The notes under the pieces are model-generated. The model saw nothing but the letters and a program-made list of their open reading frames with translations. It made no database searches and was not told the origin of the DNA. The position numbers and the translations under genes are program-made. From a virus, in the IMG/VR virus record IMGVR_UViG_3300032214_001346, positions 1 through 64,000 of that record: 64,000 bases of DNA; one strand, written 5' to 3'. Positions 55,900 through 62,290 of the stretch are shown here, piece after piece (within the stretch, counting starts at the first letter, position 1; the number at the start of each line of letters is the position of its first letter).

Positions 55900-56340
55900 T
55901 TACAGGATTTTACTTGCGCCTATACAGTAACCGATTATCCGGTCACTCCATCCCAGTTTTTCCATCTCCTGAATGGGTGCAAACTGACTCATCCAATCCC
56001 AAGGATCAGACGGTCTGATTTTTAACCCAATCAATTCAGGAATTAATCTGAGCATTTCAGGTTTCCAATACCTTTGCAGACAGCCACCGACCTTAATAAA
56101 GGCCTTTTTAACTTGTTCCTCTGAATATGTGGGAACAAGAAAGTCCATTAAGTTCAGTTGCACTGGGGTGGTGACAGACTTAAGAGGGGGTTGAACAGCA
56201 GCCTCTATACTTGCAAGCTTATTCTCGCAGTCAATCAGGGCAATAATGTACTTACGAGCATTCCTAACGCCTATAGCTATTTGGTTTCTCAGCCTGGCGA
56301 TCGCTGACTTTAACTTTTTAACGATAAGTGCAACACCCAT
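55900..56340 (-). CDS. Hypothetical early protein
   Basis: AGGAG RBS; TTGACA box near 56429-56434. Confidence 0.55.
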   Translation of the reverse strand: MGVALIVKKLKSAIARLRNQIAIGVRNARKYIIALIDCENKLASIEAAVQPPLKSVTTPVQLNLMDFLVPTYSEEQVKKAFIKVGGCLQRYWKPEMLRLIPELIGLKIRPSDPWDWMSQFAPIQEMEKLGWSDRIIGYCIGASKIL

Positions 56341-56886
56341 GGTACAATACTCCTAATCACTTGGTTAATAGAGGCTTGGGCTGTCTCCCTTGTCTCTATA
56401 TTTATATCATTACACAATATTTTATCCTTGTCAATAAGAAATTGTCCGTATTTTAATATATTTTGTACTGAATTTTTAAAGTTGTAAATTGTACAATATG
56501 AAAAGAAGTAAGCGACGTAACCGACATCAACTAAAACAGCAACTAAGGAAATTAGATGCGATCGCGCTTAAACAAATCCATAGGAGCTATAACCTTTCTT
56601 CGGCTTCCTGGGGTGGTAGTCGTTGCCCTGGATGCGGAATAAGTATTCGACCGTGCCAACTGCTTAACGCTGATTTTAGCCGGACTTTAGTAGATGAACA
56701 CAGTAGATGGGTTGGGCATATTTCAGGGCATTTTCTACCTTGCAAAAAAGTTAAACGCTGTCCCGGCGAAAGGGATTGGTTTTAAAGTTTCGGGAATTGA
56801 TATTATTTTTGCCATTAAAGGGATTGATTATAGTTGCATGATGTGAATCATCGTTTTCAATAATCCAATGTCTTTAATGGCTATTT

Positions 56887-57218
56887 TTATCCACAATCAG
56901 GTTTTCCAGCTACGGAAAAACCACAAGCGGAAAAACCAGCTACGGAAAAACCACAAGCGGAAAATCCGGCTACGGAAAATCCGGCTACGGAAAATCTGCT
57001 ATATAATAAATATCTATTCCAATAAGTATTTAATTAAAGAATTATCTAAAGAGGAAGTATCTAAGCGGAATGCCCCTCATAAGAGGATTTAAGAAAAGAA
57101 CTAACACAACAGATATCTGTTATTCCTGGCTTAAAGACAAATATTTTTAGAGAACAGATAAATCACTCATTGGATCAGGTTATGCCCGCCCGCCGCGCTT
57201 AAAAATGACAAGAAGCTA
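56887..57218 (+). pseudogene. Non-coding inverted copy of the initiator's origin segment: DnaA box TTATCCACA (56887-56895), six 15-bp iterons (56906-56995), AT-rich tract
   Basis: Translates to SGFPATEKPQAEKPATEKPQAENPATENPATENLLYNKYLFQ*, then frameshifted homology to EEVS...QIS.IP.LK...QIN.SLD.V.PA. Confidence 0.85.
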
Positions 57219-57318
57219 TAGATAGTAAAGCGTAAATTACATCACTCAACTACAATCAAGTACCTTCATGGCGGAAATAACACCAATTCCTGTAATTCCT
57301 GTTTCTCCTATGAGTCCA

Positions 57319-57337
57319 CTTGCAATTAACCCAGTTC
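57319..57337 (-). CRISPR. Isolated 19-nt 3' half of the CRISPR repeat (GAACTGGGTTAATTGCAAG)
   Basis: Exact match to the array repeat. Confidence 0.75.
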
Positions 57338-57388
57338 AGGTGTCTTTATTTTAGTAAAGAAAGCCTTGAAAGCCTTATATTCTCGATC

Positions 57389-57476
57389 CGTTAAAAGTAA
57401 CGTTGGAGTCGTTAAAAGTAACGTTGGAGTCGTTAAAAGTAAGGTTGGAGTCGTTAAAAGTAACGTTGGAGTCGTT
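57389..57476. repeat. 4 x 21-bp tandem repeat CGTTAAAAGTAACGTTGGAGT (iteron-like)
   Basis: Four contiguous units with one substitution; followed by an AT-rich TTAATTAACA duplication. Confidence 0.9.
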
Positions 57477-57565
57477 GAATTTAAGGTTTCATCTATATTA
57501 TTAAACAATCTTAATTAACAGTCTTAATTAACAATCTTTAGCTTAAGCGTAAATAAAAAAGCTTC

Positions 57566-57695
57566 TTTAAGAAAAGAACTAATACAACAGATATCTGTTA
57601 TTCCTGGCTTAAAAGTAAATATTTTTAGAGAACAGATAAATCACTCATTGGATCAGGTTATGCCCGCCGCCGCGCTTAAAAATGACAAAAAGCTA
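57566..57695 (+). repeat. About 130-bp direct repeat of 57088-57218
   Basis: TTTAAGAAAAGAACTAA...CACTCATTGGATCAGGTTATGCCCG...AAAAATGACAA nearly identical. Confidence 0.9.
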
Positions 57696-57807
57696 ATAGA
57701 CTTTGGTTCAGAATTTATAAAGCAATTTTAAAGCGTACTTATTGAATAAATAAAAAAATACCCACTAAAGCGTGTTAGTGGGTATCAGGTTGAAACCTAC
57801 AATGCAA

Positions 57808-58011
57808 CTATAACACTGTTGAAACAGCCAAGACATCATTCATGTCTTGTCCATAATATTGAACTTCAGCGGTTCTCCGTCCAAAGCGAATATCCGCGTT
57901 TCCGCCGAAGGCTCTAATTTTCCCTGCGGACATCTTGACGTACACCTGGTTATCGTCCGTTAGGGAAAAATACCCGCAGACTGGTACATCTTTAAATTGT
58001 CTAAGCTTCAT
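57808..58011 (-). CDS. 67-aa hypothetical protein with its own consensus promoter (TTGACA-17-TAGACT, 58046-58074)
   Basis: AGGAG RBS, promoter and downstream hairpin terminator. Confidence 0.65.
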   Translation of the reverse strand: MKLRQFKDVPVCGYFSLTDDNQVYVKMSAGKIRAFGGNADIRFGRRTAEVQYYGQDMNDVLAVSTVL

Positions 58012-58115
58012 TGTTTTGTCTCCTTGTCTCCTGATTTATAAATATAGTCTATCTTATTTTTTGTTTACTGTCAAGTGGTTTTAGAAAATATTTGTTTCGC
58101 TTGCTTGCTTGAATT

Positions 58116-58223
58116 CTTGCAATTAACCCAGTCCCTCAAGTCCGGTTTCACCACGCTGAAACACAATTTAATACTTTAACTTACACCTTGCAATTAACTC
58201 AGTCCCTCAAGGTCGATTTCACC
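58116..58223 (-). CRISPR. Degenerate mini-array: two diverged 37-bp repeats (58116-58152, 58187-58223) and one 34-nt spacer
   Basis: CTTGCAATTAAC.CAGT and TTTCACC ends conserved; centre diverged. Confidence 0.85.
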
Positions 58224-58353
58224 TTTACCCCTATTATAGCATTATTTCTTATTAGGAAACAATTGCTCAAGTACCCGTCCTACAGTAGTTCCTAACCACT
58301 GACCACCGCGTTTTGAGGGTATGTTTTTATTGTTTAAATAATCTGCGATCTAG

Positions 58354-58593
58354 CTAAAAATCAACTCTACCATCACTGTTTAATTGGAATGTTTCGGCGT
58401 AGTCCTTGGCGATGAAACTGCTTATTAAGTCTACAGTGGTTACTTCGTTCATGGTTTTGTCGTAATACTGAGCATAATCTGATATGGTTTTATAGGCCAC
58501 TATTAGGTTTATGGCACTAGCTTTTAGTTCCGGGTTGTTCCAATCTGTCTTGTTGATGAACGCCAATTCTTTGCTGATATCCATTAATTCCAT
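58354..58593 (-). CDS. 79-aa hypothetical protein lying between the main array and the mini-array
   Basis: ORF behind a TGCTATAAT box; flanked by 36-bp direct repeats. Confidence 0.6.
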   Translation of the reverse strand: MELMDISKELAFINKTDWNNPELKASAINLIVAYKTISDYAQYYDKTMNEVTTVDLISSFIAKDYAETFQLNSDGRVDF

Positions 58594-58648
58594 AGCTTTT
58601 AAGGGGTAGGTTTTACCCCTATTATAGCATTATTTCTTATTAGGAAAT

Positions 58649-59049
58649 CTTGCAATTAACCCAGTTTCCCAAGGTCGGCTTCACCAATTAAATAGCACCG
58701 GCACTAATGATGAGATAAGAGTCTTGCAATTAACCCAGTTCCCTAAGGTCGGTTTCACCTTCTGAATATTGAATCTTTGATAGAAGCTAACTTGCAATTA
58801 ACCCAGTTCCCTAAGGTCGGTTTCACCAACTCGATGTTTTTTATTCCTGATTTTGAATCAAATCTTGCAATTAACCCAGTTCCCTAAGGTCGGTTTCACC
58901 CAAACCGGGAGGGTTGATGGAATTTAGGTCGACACTTGCAATTAACCCAGTTCCCTAAGGTCGGTTTCACCTTTGAAGCTCAAAAAAAGAGATTAGAGTT
59001 GAATTTTCTTGCCTTGCAATTAACCCAGTTCCCTAAGGTCGGTTTCACC
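58649..59049 (-). CRISPR. CRISPR array: six 37-bp repeats GGTGAAACCGACCTTAGGGAACTGGGTTAATTGCAAG with five spacers (41, 34, 36, 31, 37 nt in transcription order)
   Basis: Repeats at 59013-59049, 58935-58971, 58864-58900, 58791-58827, 58723-58759 (identical) and 58649-58685 (3 mismatches, trailer end); unique spacers. Confidence 0.97.
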
Positions 59050-60783
59050 TGCCGTATCCCAGATCGTAAGCTGTGTAAAGGTTTCATCCCCTGATTGCGC
59101 GGATCTCTTATTTTTCTTTGTTCCAGGTTTTTGAGTTTTCGCTGAATTAGCTGAAATGCTTATTGGGTAAGGTGCGCGGGTGCTTGGTAAATTGTCAAGG
59201 TTCGGATTGCTTACGGTGTCTACCTTTGAGGTTGTTTTCACGGCTTTAGAGGTTTTTACATCCCCCCTTCCGCGCTGAGTTCCCCTTTCGGGGTTTAATT
59301 GGGAGGAATATCCATCCTCCGGTGGTGCTTGCACACCTTCCTGGTGACATCCCGTATTGGAATCAGAGCCAGGCTTTCGGGTTTCCCCATGTTCCCACGC
59401 CCAAGCGCGGTACACTGCTGATAATTGTTTTTTGCCTTTGAGCAAGATGTTCTTAGCTGCATTAGAATCACGTCCTTCTGTGTGACCACATTCTGTACAG
59501 CGGTGAGTTCTTTGGCTCAATGCTTTCTTTATTTTAGCACCACATTTTGAACAGTCAACCGTAGTGAAATGAGCAGCAACTTTTACAAACTCTCTATCAG
59601 TATCTTTACACTTTGTTTCAATTTTACTGATTAAATCACCCAGTGCTGAATCAGCAAAACTTTTGTTTAACCCAGCTTTACGTTTTGCACCGTTTTGTTC
59701 ATAGCCATTGCCGTCCTCACGTTTCTTGGCTTTGGGCTTACGGTTCAGGTTTTGTATCTTTAAGTCTTCCATCACAATCCCAGAATACTCACGCACAACT
59801 TTAGTAGATAACTTATGGTTAAAAGCGTTACGGCTGCGGCGGATCTTTTCATGGTGTAAAGCTATTTTTTGATAGGTTTTCTTCTGATTACATCCTCCCT
59901 TTTGTTGCCTAGACGCTTTACGCTGTAACCGTCTTAGCTTTGCTTGTTGTTTCCTAAATAGCTTAGGCGGTTCTATTTCTCTCCCCTGATCTGTGGTGAT
60001 AATTGATAGTAAACCCGGATCAATTCCTACTGCTTTATCAGATTTTGGTAATGGGTCATTGGGGATATCAACGCATACATGAAGATAGTAACCTGATGGT
60101 TCTTTAACTATTCTGGCAGGACCCCATTCTTGCCAGTCATATCTATCAAATAATCCTTTAACTTTAATTTTACCAAGTTTAGGGAACTGGACATAGCCAT
60201 TATTTGAGCCGGGTATTTTTTCCGGTTTTAGTTCTTTGGATAAACCCCCAGCATTGAGATTAACAAGTGACTTGATTTTATCATTTCTCCCTTTGAATTT
60301 TGGCTTTCTACCGGGGTGTTTTGGGGTAACGTAAGCTTTCCATGATTTCTTTAAAGAATCAATTACCCCTGCCTTAAATTTAGTGGGAACATCTGCCATA
60401 AAGTCGGGAATATTGTCACTCCTATAAAATTCACATTGTCCATATTTATCAGGGTTTTCAATATTCAAATGTTGTCTAATTTCACAGTAAGGATGACCGC
60501 TTTTAGGTCTGATGACACCTGTACCGACTAAGCGGACTTTTTCCCACTTCTCAGTAGACTTACCTTTCTTGTCTTCAGTAACAACCTTTCGCCATTTCCA
60601 CTGCAAAACTACACCATCAGGAATAATGCGATCGCTTATTTCTTTCTCTCTATAATATTTCTGTCTTCCTGCTAGTTTGAGTGACAGCCCTGTATTCCAA
60701 ACCCACTTGAGTTTGTCTAGCCATTGATTAATCGTTTGTACCTGTGCAACCGTGGGGTCAAGTTTAAATTCAAAAGTTTTCAT
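59020..60783 (-). CDS. TnpB/Cas12f-like RNA-guided RuvC nuclease, CRISPR-associated (compact type V candidate)
   Basis: KTFEFKLDPT...WVWN N-terminus; RuvC-I GIDPG, RuvC-II VMEDL, Zn finger CSKC/CTEC, RuvC-III RDSNAAKNI; directly fused to the array. Confidence 0.9.
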   Translation of the reverse strand: MKTFEFKLDPTVAQVQTINQWLDKLKWVWNTGLSLKLAGRQKYYREKEISDRIIPDGVVLQWKWRKVVTEDKKGKSTEKWEKVRLVGTGVIRPKSGHPYCEIRQHLNIENPDKYGQCEFYRSDNIPDFMADVPTKFKAGVIDSLKKSWKAYVTPKHPGRKPKFKGRNDKIKSLVNLNAGGLSKELKPEKIPGSNNGYVQFPKLGKIKVKGLFDRYDWQEWGPARIVKEPSGYYLHVCVDIPNDPLPKSDKAVGIDPGLLSIITTDQGREIEPPKLFRKQQAKLRRLQRKASRQQKGGCNQKKTYQKIALHHEKIRRSRNAFNHKLSTKVVREYSGIVMEDLKIQNLNRKPKAKKREDGNGYEQNGAKRKAGLNKSFADSALGDLISKIETKCKDTDREFVKVAAHFTTVDCSKCGAKIKKALSQRTHRCTECGHTEGRDSNAAKNILLKGKKQLSAVYRAWAWEHGETRKPGSDSNTGCHQEGVQAPPEDGYSSQLNPERGTQRGRGDVKTSKAVKTTSKVDTVSNPNLDNLPSTRAPYPISISANSAKTQKPGTKKNKRSAQSGDETFTQLTIWDTAGETDLRELG

Positions 60784-60816
60784 GGTAAAATAGATGCGTG
60801 GGTATGTTGGACCTAC

Positions 60817-60878
60817 TCCTAGTGGTGGATTGATGCTGAGAACATCACCACGCGACTAGGTTTAAATATTATAGCATT
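60817..60878 (-). promoter_or_regulatory. Extended -10 (AATGCTATAATA) and 5'-UTR hairpin of the nuclease gene
   Basis: CCTAGT..GTGG.TGATG-loop-CATCA..CCAC.ACTAGG on the minus strand. Confidence 0.55.
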
Positions 60879-60991
60879 TAAACCAAATATATGACATTGA
60901 GGCAATTGAAACAGAAACTTTACGCTACAATAATAATGTCAAGCTCAGATATATTAAGGGTGCTGTCAGTAATGCTGACAGCTTTATCATT

Positions 60992-61321
60992 ATGTTCCCA
61001 AATGCGCCTAGTTCTCTTAAAATCAGTTGGGATAATGCCATAAGTTTTGAAGCAAGTTTCTTATCTCAAAACTACCAGGGTGGTGTGGATGAGAAAGGGA
61101 ATAGAAACCAGCTTAACCAGGTGGTCGGTACGCAGACTTTGACCTTGACCATTGATAGTTTATTTACTTATTCAGAGATTGATACTTTTTTAACTAATAA
61201 TTTAAGTAAGCCTTTCTACTTTAATTCCACTTTGTACCGTTGCGAGACGTTTAAGTGGACACCATCTAGCGATAAGGTGTTTAAGTTGGAACTGAGTTTA
61301 ATTCAAATATTTAGACCTTAA
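60992..61321 (+). CDS. Second minor tail protein M-like protein
   Basis: IDTFL......PFYF....YRC..F........LS..Q.F.P; 109 aa. Confidence 0.55.
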   Translation: MFPNAPSSLKISWDNAISFEASFLSQNYQGGVDEKGNRNQLNQVVGTQTLTLTIDSLFTYSEIDTFLTNNLSKPFYFNSTLYRCETFKWTPSSDKVFKLELSLIQIFRP

Positions 61322-61437
61322 TCAAGTCTAATCGGGCTATATATTCAATAAAAATTATAAGATATTTCTACTGATATTGTGCATAACAATTAATTATATG
61401 TAATTATTAAAAATAAAAATGTTGAGGTTTTAATACT

Positions 61438-61992
61438 ATGAAATGGGAAAAACTACCAAAACCTTGGACTAAAGAACAGTGTCGCCGTCGCTACGTTGAA
61501 AGTGAAGAGGATATAGGTATTAGAAAACTGGCTGTCGAGGCTGGCTTGGGTAAGGGAACTGTTGAGGTATGGGTAAGACGAGAATTATGGGTAGACCAAA
61601 GGCGACAGTACCAAGACACCCTAAAGACAACTATTCAAGTTAAAACTATACAGAAAGCATCTGAGAAAATATCAGATGAACTCTCTCAAATTGTCATTGA
61701 AAATTACAAAGTACACAAACTTGCTAGGGATTATGTGGCTAAAATAATTGAGGTTAAAGCTAGACAATTGGCAGAAGATTTAGAACTGACGGGAGAAGAA
61801 AGAAAGAAAGCAATTTCTCTACATAGCGCACCTGAAACAAATCAATGGTCACAGGCATTGCAGCGGTCAACAAGTGCCATTAATGAGACTAGAGGGATTA
61901 AATACTTTGTTGATGTCAACGCAGCTGCTGATAAGCTATCTAGGGAAGGCTACCAAATTATTGATCCAAGTGAAGATAATGAAGATATTTAA
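61438..61992 (+). CDS. Terminase small subunit-like HTH protein
   Basis: W......RYV......R.LA...G....TV..W...E.W..QR..Y; next to ParB-N and MTase genes. Confidence 0.55.
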   Translation: MKWEKLPKPWTKEQCRRRYVESEEDIGIRKLAVEAGLGKGTVEVWVRRELWVDQRRQYQDTLKTTIQVKTIQKASEKISDELSQIVIENYKVHKLARDYVAKIIEVKARQLAEDLELTGEERKKAISLHSAPETNQWSQALQRSTSAINETRGIKYFVDVNAAADKLSREGYQIIDPSEDNEDI

Positions 61993-62290
61993 GATTTTTG
62001 ATTTTACTGGACATGGTGCGATCGCTATTGAGCATGGAGAAACTGTATATAAGGCAATTCATTACCACTTACTACGTAATGAGTTGGTGCAATTGGATTT
62101 TACAGGAATTGAGATTTTAGGTACTGCATTTGTGGGAGTTGCCCTAAAGCAACTCCTGAGGGATATTTCCCAGGAAAAAGTGAATGGCTTAATTGAGTTT
62201 ACTGGACTCAGTGATGATAAACGTGATATGATACAGCGTGTAATGAAAAAAGCGTATAAGTGGTACTTTGATGAACAAAATCAAGCGTAG
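61979..62290 (+). CDS. STAS-like (DUF4325) protein; likely ATG 61979
   Basis: GE.VY..I......V.LDFTGI.....AFV..A...L. Confidence 0.75.
   Translation: MKIFKIFDFTGHGAIAIEHGETVYKAIHYHLLRNELVQLDFTGIEILGTAFVGVALKQLLRDISQEKVNGLIEFTGLSDDKRDMIQRVMKKAYKWYFDEQNQA

Follow-up and report, generated by a model that had tools for sequence, protein, structure and literature searches.

The right-end element RNA (reRNA, or omegaRNA) of TnpB covers tnpB at its 3' end (PMC8612924), and for Cas12n (type V-N, formerly V-U4/C2c9) a tracrRNA (trans-activating CRISPR RNA) region that overlaps the open reading frame (ORF) has been described along with a disordered C-terminal region (PMC12216341). [quoted passage not shown] For the type V-U2 locus of Aphanizomenon phage vB_AphaS-CL131, finally, no tracrRNA was found and the direction of the array was left open (PMC6293099); we found no published guide-RNA architecture for type V-U2 (C2c8). 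Here we describe a C2c8 nuclease gene and the adjoining CRISPR array located on 64,000 nucleotides of cyanophage DNA (positions 1 to 64,000 of the IMG/VR record IMGVR_UViG_3300032214_001346, hereafter 'the window'), for which we found by computation a covarying RNA structure within the ORF, two contacts of this structure with the repeat, a reading frame that is kept open, and a distinct pattern of selection. We consider it likely that the 3' part of the nuclease gene is dual-purpose, that is, that it specifies both a guide-RNA scaffold (a tracrRNA derived from the omegaRNA of TnpB) and a translated, disordered protein tail. A scaffold overlapping the ORF is a layout known for Cas12n and TnpB, and we found no description of it for C2c8.

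The gene and the array overlap as follows:

59020..60783, minus strand: ORF of the type V-U2 (C2c8) TnpB-like nuclease, 587 residues
58117..59050, minus strand, that is, with the polarity of the nuclease gene: CRISPR array of six good repeats, a 424-bp insertion and two degenerate distal repeats (eight repeats in total)
59014..59050, minus strand: CRISPR repeat 1 (length 37 nt), doubling as the codons of the final nine residues and the stop

The stop codon of the nuclease, TAA (59020-59022), lies within repeat 1. The protein is a type V-U2 effector C2c8, based on (i) the family model NCBIfam NF038192 V_cas_c2c8, which it matches with 484.2 bits (cut-off 350) and in line with which its homologs are labelled C2c8 by NCBI, (ii) the RuvC residues D255, E339 and D439 and the zinc-ribbon residues C411, C414 and C429, which are all invariant in an alignment of 36 homologs, and (iii) an adjoining array devoid of adaptation genes, there being no Cas1 in the entire 93-kb phage record. 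Besides OrfB_IS605 and HTH_OrfB, Pfam recognizes the Cas12f1-like TNB zinc ribbon in the nuclease. Of the TnpB models, the general guided_TnpB subfamily one is likewise matched above its cut-off (201 bits; cut-off 100), and the IS200_TnpB model NF038281 is matched below it (173 bits; cut-off 425). RuvC-III (RDSNAAKNIL) comprises residues 438-447 and is followed by the sequence YRAWAWE (residues 458-464) and then by about 125 more residues, the long and disordered-looking tail to which the original prediction had drawn attention; consistently, AlphaFold2 assigns residues 460-587 a predicted local distance difference test (pLDDT) score of about 30 and no secondary structure. For comparison we gathered about 120 loci, drawn from genomes, viral contigs and metagenomes; the only cultured relative is CL131, with 76-77% identity across the nuclease gene.

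As in the IS200/IS605 elements (ISDra2), the scaffold predicted here overlaps the nuclease gene at its 3' end, and the nucleases share the same Pfam domains. However, the phage record yielded neither a match to the Y1 transposase TnpA (PF01797) nor transposon ends, and whereas an omegaRNA carries a single guide directly after the scaffold, the window has about 225 nt between anti-repeat and repeat 1 and then an eight-repeat array, so that the guide would come from a CRISPR array that is not contiguous with the scaffold. Four array-less relatives (L002, L003, L009 and L052) possess one repeat-like unit at the end of the ORF, with the same types of 3' end (…CGAUCG-CAAG/UAAG, …GGUUG-GAAG); by their sequence, these solitary-unit loci look closer to the omegaRNA state, which would then exist beside the CRISPR state in one family. 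Cas12n (RdCas12n, PDB 9j09; E = 7.7e-38 against the family profile) is likewise a miniature TnpB-derived effector with a disordered C-terminus and an ORF-overlapping tracrRNA region, but belongs to a family different from C2c8 (NF038192); moreover, the window's ORF continues about 225 nt past the scaffold into the first repeat, and the conserved terminal QLxLW motif belongs to the C2c8 tail, no clamp-like motif having been found described for Cas12n. The best solved relative by sequence is Cas12p (PDB 9jfs; profile E = 5.7e-71 over residues 1-447), the 'Cas12 hacker', which is a phage-borne miniature Cas12 using the same pseudoknot and anti-repeat logic as predicted for the window. Unlike the C2c8 nuclease, it has its own N-terminal extension with a thioredoxin-binding domain and ends about 15 residues past RuvC-III without a long tail, and its RNA is said to come from a non-coding region (bioRxiv 10.1101/2025.01.20.633832). 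The CL131 locus, finally, is of the same family and from the same kind of phage, with the array directly after the gene, a scaffold, and an anti-repeat that matches its own repeat; its tail, in contrast to that of the window, contains a stop and a frameshift.

Comparative analysis indicates that a conserved, covarying RNA structure overlaps codons ~457-503 (about 59275-59415, minus strand). Its elements, from 5' to 3', are:

59389..59415, minus strand: scaffold hairpin over the YRAWAWE codons, with an inner stem in which 59405-59410 pairs with 59395-59400
59402-59405, minus strand: predicted pseudoknot loop CUUG, complementary to the last four nucleotides (CAAG) of every repeat
59379..59388, minus strand: small GGG-GAAA-CCC hairpin of the scaffold (RNAalifold and minimum free energy fold)
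59340..59373, minus strand: two nested scaffold helices, CCUGG/CCAGG and AUUCC/GGGAU (compensatory changes among relatives)
59324..59337, minus strand: scaffold helix 6, GGUGU/GCACC (RNAalifold, covariation counts)
59302..59320, minus strand: scaffold helix 7, a 6-bp stem GGAGGA/UCCUCC with the 7-nt loop UGGAUAU (compensatory changes in all six pairs)

For nine distinct members of the clade, RNAalifold yields seven helices with 36 base pairs, 15 of which exhibit compensatory changes, and 98.4% of the alignment cells are paired; none of 500 shuffles reached these values, and in slid controls only 2-4 pairs were changed on both sides, with 34-47% of the cells paired. A covariance model built from this alignment locates the element in about 30 diverse C2c8 loci, at the homologous place and on the sense strand, and in the resulting wide alignment 35 of the 36 pairs show compensatory changes (94% of the cells paired versus about 40-45% after sliding). 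The original prediction had placed a tracrRNA/omegaRNA-like scaffold inside the ORF, with CAATTAA complementary to the repeat, and this part is borne out by the seven helices and by the covariation of both contacts described below. Its position, however, had to be revised: the scaffold lies mostly 5' of the motifs then noted, at 59302-59415, where it takes in the YRAWAWE codons and some 40 codons (~40) at the start of the tail, and not in the bulk of the low-complexity tail (59076-59274). In two Nostoc-type loci, the scaffold model has additional matches that precede the nuclease gene or fall early within it (L003:2489-2672, L003:3125-3256 and L053:635-839), those in L003 outscoring the cognate site; they may be remnants of further copies. 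Two other helices were rejected on account of little covariation, namely a long-range GCGCGG/CCGCGC helix (about 59270-59275 with 59172-59177), the 3' strand of which is also missing from short-tail variants, and a GGGGG/CCUCU hairpin downstream of the anti-repeat.

The substitution pattern coincides with this structure. When the window is compared with relatives that are 70-78% identical in protein, identity at synonymous codons is about 50-65% in the core of the gene and 95-100% in codons ~448-490. Correspondingly, Nei-Gojobori counts give synonymous substitution rates (dS) of 0.42-0.71 in the core versus 0.00-0.11 in codons 448-500, where the ratio of the nonsynonymous to the synonymous rate (dN/dS) is about 1 or more, and it is therefore the nucleotides, and not the amino acids, that are constrained there. 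The covariation analysis across homologs and the dN/dS calculation for the segment had been put forward as checks in the original prediction. YRAWAWE corresponds to the first hairpin, and the UGRAUAU loop of helix 7 contains the nearly invariant E482; judged from these alignments, YRAWAWE and the E of AP.EY are clearly footprints of RNA helices and loops rather than true protein motifs. It is less certain that RGxGDV and TRAP, too, are footprints of RNA helices.

Two parts of the structure appear to contact the CRISPR repeat. The first is the pseudoknot predicted from complementarity: in each of 14 loci, the loop of the first hairpin, taken together with its closing base, exactly complements the repeat's last four bases, by four types of pairing (CUUG:CAAG, CUUU:AAAG, GUUU:AAAC and GUUG:CAAC; permutation p = 5e-6). 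The second is the anti-repeat:

59295..59301, minus strand: anti-repeat CAAUUAA, directly 3' of helix 7, paired with repeat nt 27-33, which immediately precede the terminal CAAG

In every member, the run directly 3' of helix 7 complements the repeat bases that immediately precede the four terminal nucleotides of the repeat, and the run varies along with the repeat, reading CAAUUAA in the window, CAAUUAACC in L001, CCAACUACA in L048, CCAAUCACAU in L023 (where the full anti-repeat comprises 33 nt), and CGAUCGC or CAAUCCC in further relatives. Scored over 20 loci, cognate anti-repeat and repeat pairs total 138.0, versus 96.2 ± 6.4 for permuted pairs and a maximum of 127.5 in 200,000 permutations (p < 5e-6). 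These anchored tests were used since scans with whole repeats (RNAduplex) proved too noisy. In L048 (1540-1880), the nuclease core is 96% identical to that of the window, and from between helices 5 and 6 onward the sequence switches to helices, anti-repeat and short tail of the L023 type with a different repeat; as judged from the alignment, the anti-repeat part and the array were swapped together as one module. Two candidates located elsewhere were rejected. A 16/19 complement to repeat nt 7-25 at 60172-60190 (conserved FPKLGK codons of the ORF) is probably a coincidence, being the same in L048 with its different repeat and varying synonymously in a manner untied to the repeat. Similarly, an upstream or divergent tracrRNA found no support in 60784-60991, which lacks a consistent complement and in which duplex matches are at noise level.

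The original prediction had rested on two motifs, both of which we located on the minus strand where they had been placed: 59293 to 59282 reads CCCC-GAAA-GGGG, a hairpin that is present in the single-sequence minimum free energy fold of the region (z = -2.65), and 59301 to 59291 reads CAATTAAACCC, which, apart from one extra A, is complementary to repeat nt 24-33 (GGGTTAATTG). As drawn, however, hairpin and anti-repeat share the three bases 59291-59293, and therefore cannot form simultaneously. A split register suggests itself that keeps both features, in which CAAUUAA (59301-59295), the hairpin and a second complementary run (59279-59275) would together engage repeat nt 22-33:

59282..59293, minus strand: CCCC-GAAA-GGGG hairpin that follows the anti-repeat as an insertion (in relatives this place is taken by a GNRA-type hairpin)
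59275..59279, minus strand: CUCAG, possibly the second half of a split anti-repeat, which would pair with repeat nt 22-26

This register is fully Watson-Crick in L028, the repeat of which has A at nt 25, and an analogous split is seen in L060, where complementarity to the repeat resumes past a GNRA-type hairpin. A hairpin of this type is found 3' of the anti-repeat in many members.

Turning to the protein, we consider that the tail is probably translated, as gauged from the conservation of its frame and codons. Many diverse lineages keep the frame open from RuvC-III to the end and differ in length by multiples of three; only 18 of 5000 shuffles leave it free of stops, and 6 and 8 stops are present in the other two frames. 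In most loci the frame ends 11-33 nt inside the first repeat despite greatly differing repeat sequences, and it ends 6-11 nt ahead of the first repeat in the L023 group and L048. Downstream of the scaffold, two parts of the tail can be distinguished:

59076..59274, minus strand: low-complexity linker of the protein tail, neutral at the amino-acid level and almost entirely missing from natural short-tail variants
59059..59073, minus strand: codons for QLTIW (residues 571-575), a β-clamp-like C-terminal motif (conservation, dN/dS, complex model)

Linker codons 501-555 exhibit a dN/dS of about 1, whereas the final ~23 codons yield 0.27-0.41, even for pairs with a dS of about 1.5. Q571 and L572 are nearly invariant in the 36-homolog alignment, and the QLxLW codons vary synonymously (CAG/CAA; CUU/CUG/UUG/UUA/CUA). 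The motif also stays C-terminal in L008, L056 and L061, where the array is 84-97 nt farther away, which speaks against its being a DNA motif of the leader-repeat junction. In the sense of an overlap, the segment would thus be dual-coded, as had been proposed: its frame stays open, and the QLxLW at the C-terminus is under selection at the protein level.

In the arrangement that we favor, the minus strand at about 59275-59415 would serve as the guide-RNA scaffold, that is, as a tracrRNA that arose from a TnpB omegaRNA. The CUUG loop of its 5' hairpin would pair with the last four repeat bases, CAAG, as a pseudoknot; four further helices would follow, and after the last of these the anti-repeat CAAUUAA would pair with the repeat bases just 5' of CAAG, with the CCCC-GAAA-GGGG hairpin placed beside the repeat duplex and CUCAG possibly extending it. 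CRISPR RNAs (repeat followed by spacer) would be derived from the array, which begins within the end of the ORF. In its role as messenger, the same stretch would be read through by the ribosome to yield the disordered tail, the first ~45 residues of which would be dictated by the RNA, the next ~70 would constitute a neutral linker, and the last ~20 would contribute a basic patch and the putatively clamp-binding QLTIW. We infer that the nuclease binds the scaffold RNA, which may be released by processing of the mRNA or transcribed from an internal promoter.

Several observations weigh against this dual role. On the side of the protein, the cultured relative CL131 (L131, MG209611, 1749-2133) has a CGA to TGA change after ...WEHGET and a frameshift before GTSVTCHD, so that its gene is annotated at 466 residues, as a 'transposase'; CL131 nevertheless keeps the scaffold, the QLTLW codons and the array. 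Likewise, in the DNA contig L022 and in relatives from four lake metatranscriptomes, position 59217 is joined straight to a repeat by a deletion spanning 58828-59216, with the scaffold kept and both linker and QLTIW gone, and the tail peptide is hence dispensable in some lineages. On the side of the RNA, the wide alignment of ~30 loci was fitted to the covariance model and is thus biased toward the structure, the low dS could partly reflect recombination of a tail-plus-array module of the kind swapped in L048, and the window's own anti-repeat is short, with only 7 contiguous base pairs. Furthermore, dinucleotide shuffling of the segment yields a bulged complement as good or better 32 times in 500, so that the complement taken alone does not exceed chance and its significance derives solely from the comparative evidence, and whole-repeat duplex energies (RNAduplex, ORF and flanks) separate cognate from non-cognate repeats only in the L023/L027 group.

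Among the alternatives, the one that fares best concerns only the last ~120 nt before repeat 1 (59051-59170), which might constitute a CRISPR leader with a promoter and integration signals for a host Cas1-Cas2, in keeping with the adaptation leader that the original prediction had placed inside the ORF. Degenerate repeats at the far end of the array, the fast turnover suggested by arrays that lack common spacers next to nucleases of 95-99% identity, and a dS of this stretch below that of the core would all fit. Yet no cas1 is present in the phage record and no promoter-like site in 59051-59170, the stretch is conserved as amino acids and not as nucleotides in more distant relatives, the array of L022 adjoins a different sequence, and arrays start 84-97 nt past the ORF in L008, L056 and L061; we regard a leader function as rather unlikely. 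Less plausible still is that the region is purely non-coding (tracrRNA and leader), the protein truly ending near residue 460 and the long ORF being an accident of annotation. The disrupted, 466-residue gene of CL131 and the loss of the distal tail in L022 and its metatranscriptome relatives are what one would expect in that case, as is a dN/dS of about 1 throughout codons 448-555, and the NCBIfam C2c8 model ends near residue 420. What makes it improbable is the frame itself, which in many diverse lineages extends from RuvC-III as far as the first repeat, or as far as a C-terminal QLxL[WF], with indels in threes and against the odds given by the shuffles and the other two frames, as well as the low dN/dS and synonymous variation at the C-terminal end and the retention of the motif there where the array is distant.

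That the structure is instead a cis-acting mRNA element (for stability, translation control or as a processing signal) would agree with its location within the mRNA, with the lack of a separate terminator after it and with an RNA 5' end that is undefined. A purely cis-acting element, however, does not need two separate parts that covary with the CRISPR repeat, and the architecture, in which a pseudoknot with the 3' end of the repeat is combined with an anti-repeat duplex, corresponds to that of solved tracrRNA and omegaRNA systems (bioRxiv 10.1101/2025.01.20.633832; PMC12216341), so that we give this explanation very little credence. Finally, that the tail is a disordered protein extension only, in which hairpin and repeat complement are chance features without an RNA role, is hardly tenable: it could draw on the shuffles for the bulged 10-bp complement, on the triviality of a 4-bp hairpin and on the lack of an Rfam match (a scan of 56000-62000 returned solely a chance-level AniS match, E = 0.89), but is already contradicted by the compensatory changes in seven helices, the covariation of anti-repeat and pseudoknot loop with the repeat, and the nearly frozen synonymous sites of codons 448-490.

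The conserved end of the tail invites a separate proposal. Bacterial β-clamp-binding pentapeptides are of the QL[SD]LF type, and we take the C-terminal QLxL[W/F] of the nuclease to resemble them: it likewise starts with QL, has hydrophobic residues at positions 4 and 5, resides in a disordered C-terminus (pLDDT below 50 for residues 460-587) and is modelled in the canonical cleft, but differs by having W or F at the last position. Binding is supported, not demonstrated, by a model of residues 540-587 with DnaN of Dolichospermum circinale, the genome of which encodes an 88%-identical nuclease: the score was 0.63 (best of three controls, 0.00), a mark reached by 58 of 80 solved complexes and by 2 of 110 mismatched pairs, these counts being approximate since the alignments were our own. 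Agreement between runs extends to at least 76% of the contacts, with a partner pLDDT of at least 42, and residues 568-578 occupy the cleft formed by DnaN residues 183-188, 259-264, 337-339, 363-365 and 379-386, including the DnaN C-terminus. Against this stand the atypical W in place of F at the final position, the abundance of clamp-peptide complexes among solved structures, as a result of which the model may pass by memory or likeness, and the choice of DnaN, since D. circinale is not a proven host. Hence, we place the chance that QLTIW binds the sliding clamp of the host slightly below even, and hold somewhat more tentatively still that QLxL[W/F] is a true clamp-binding motif that, by way of the long disordered linker, would tether the phage nuclease to sliding clamps of the host that stay behind on replicating DNA. 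Searching the literature, we came upon no paper that connects such a motif with TnpB or Cas12; a phrase search for tracrRNAs embedded in an ORF was likewise empty. If binding indeed occurs, an RNA-guided nuclease would be linked to the replication machinery, and if tethering does, interference could be biased toward actively replicating rivals (other phages, plasmids) or toward replication forks; this would be reminiscent of the way in which IS200/IS605 transposition is coupled to replication, and would represent the first clamp-coupled effector of the CRISPR/TnpB type.

Type V-U2 (C2c8) is a widespread nuclease family of cyanobacteria and cyanophages. The base-level map of scaffold, pseudoknot and anti-repeat proposed here leads to a directly testable single-guide design for a compact nuclease (core of about 460 residues), and the recognition that several apparent protein motifs of the family are footprints of RNA helices is relevant for annotation and for engineering by truncation.

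Some hints at expression come from the four lake metatranscriptome runs, in which a relative's contig that spans 59217-59513 (as far as 59606 in one run) together with the array reaches a depth of 150-590, compared with 3-13 for contigs of the rest of the gene. Contig depth being a poor measure of RNA level, and conserved sequence being apt to pool strains, this is a weak hint that an RNA comprising scaffold and array accumulates. The contig ends differ among the runs (59310, 59314, 59513 and 59606). In run X8, the high-depth contig ends at 59606 straight into the Illumina adapter, and many fragments may end there; in this one run, 59606 could be an RNA 5' end. One candidate promoter was noted:

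59531..59558, minus strand: sigma-70-like site TTGACT-16-TAAAAT with TG, a weak candidate for a scaffold promoter, kept in the close clade

This site could conceivably drive the scaffold RNA; sigma-70-like sites in the region are not more numerous than in shuffles.

As for the arrays themselves, four phages (L018, L020, L021 and L028) with nucleases of 94-99% identity carry arrays of 5 to 28 repeats that have zero spacers in common, which suggests rapid spacer turnover although there are no adaptation genes near these loci. Apart from near-identical contigs, no arrays share spacers that would indicate polarity, and a BLAST search of the spacers against a phage collection gave no match. The 424-bp insertion that splits the window's array (58224-58647) has the same 36-nt sequence as a direct repeat at either edge (58224-58259 and 58612-58647) and contains a 79-residue ORF (58354-58593, minus strand), with the two degenerate repeats located beyond it. 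Downstream of the array, we observed a duplication of ~130 bp (57088-57218 and 57566-57695, 96-97% identical), four tandem 21-bp units (57389-57493) and a partial copy of the repeat at 57317-57337.

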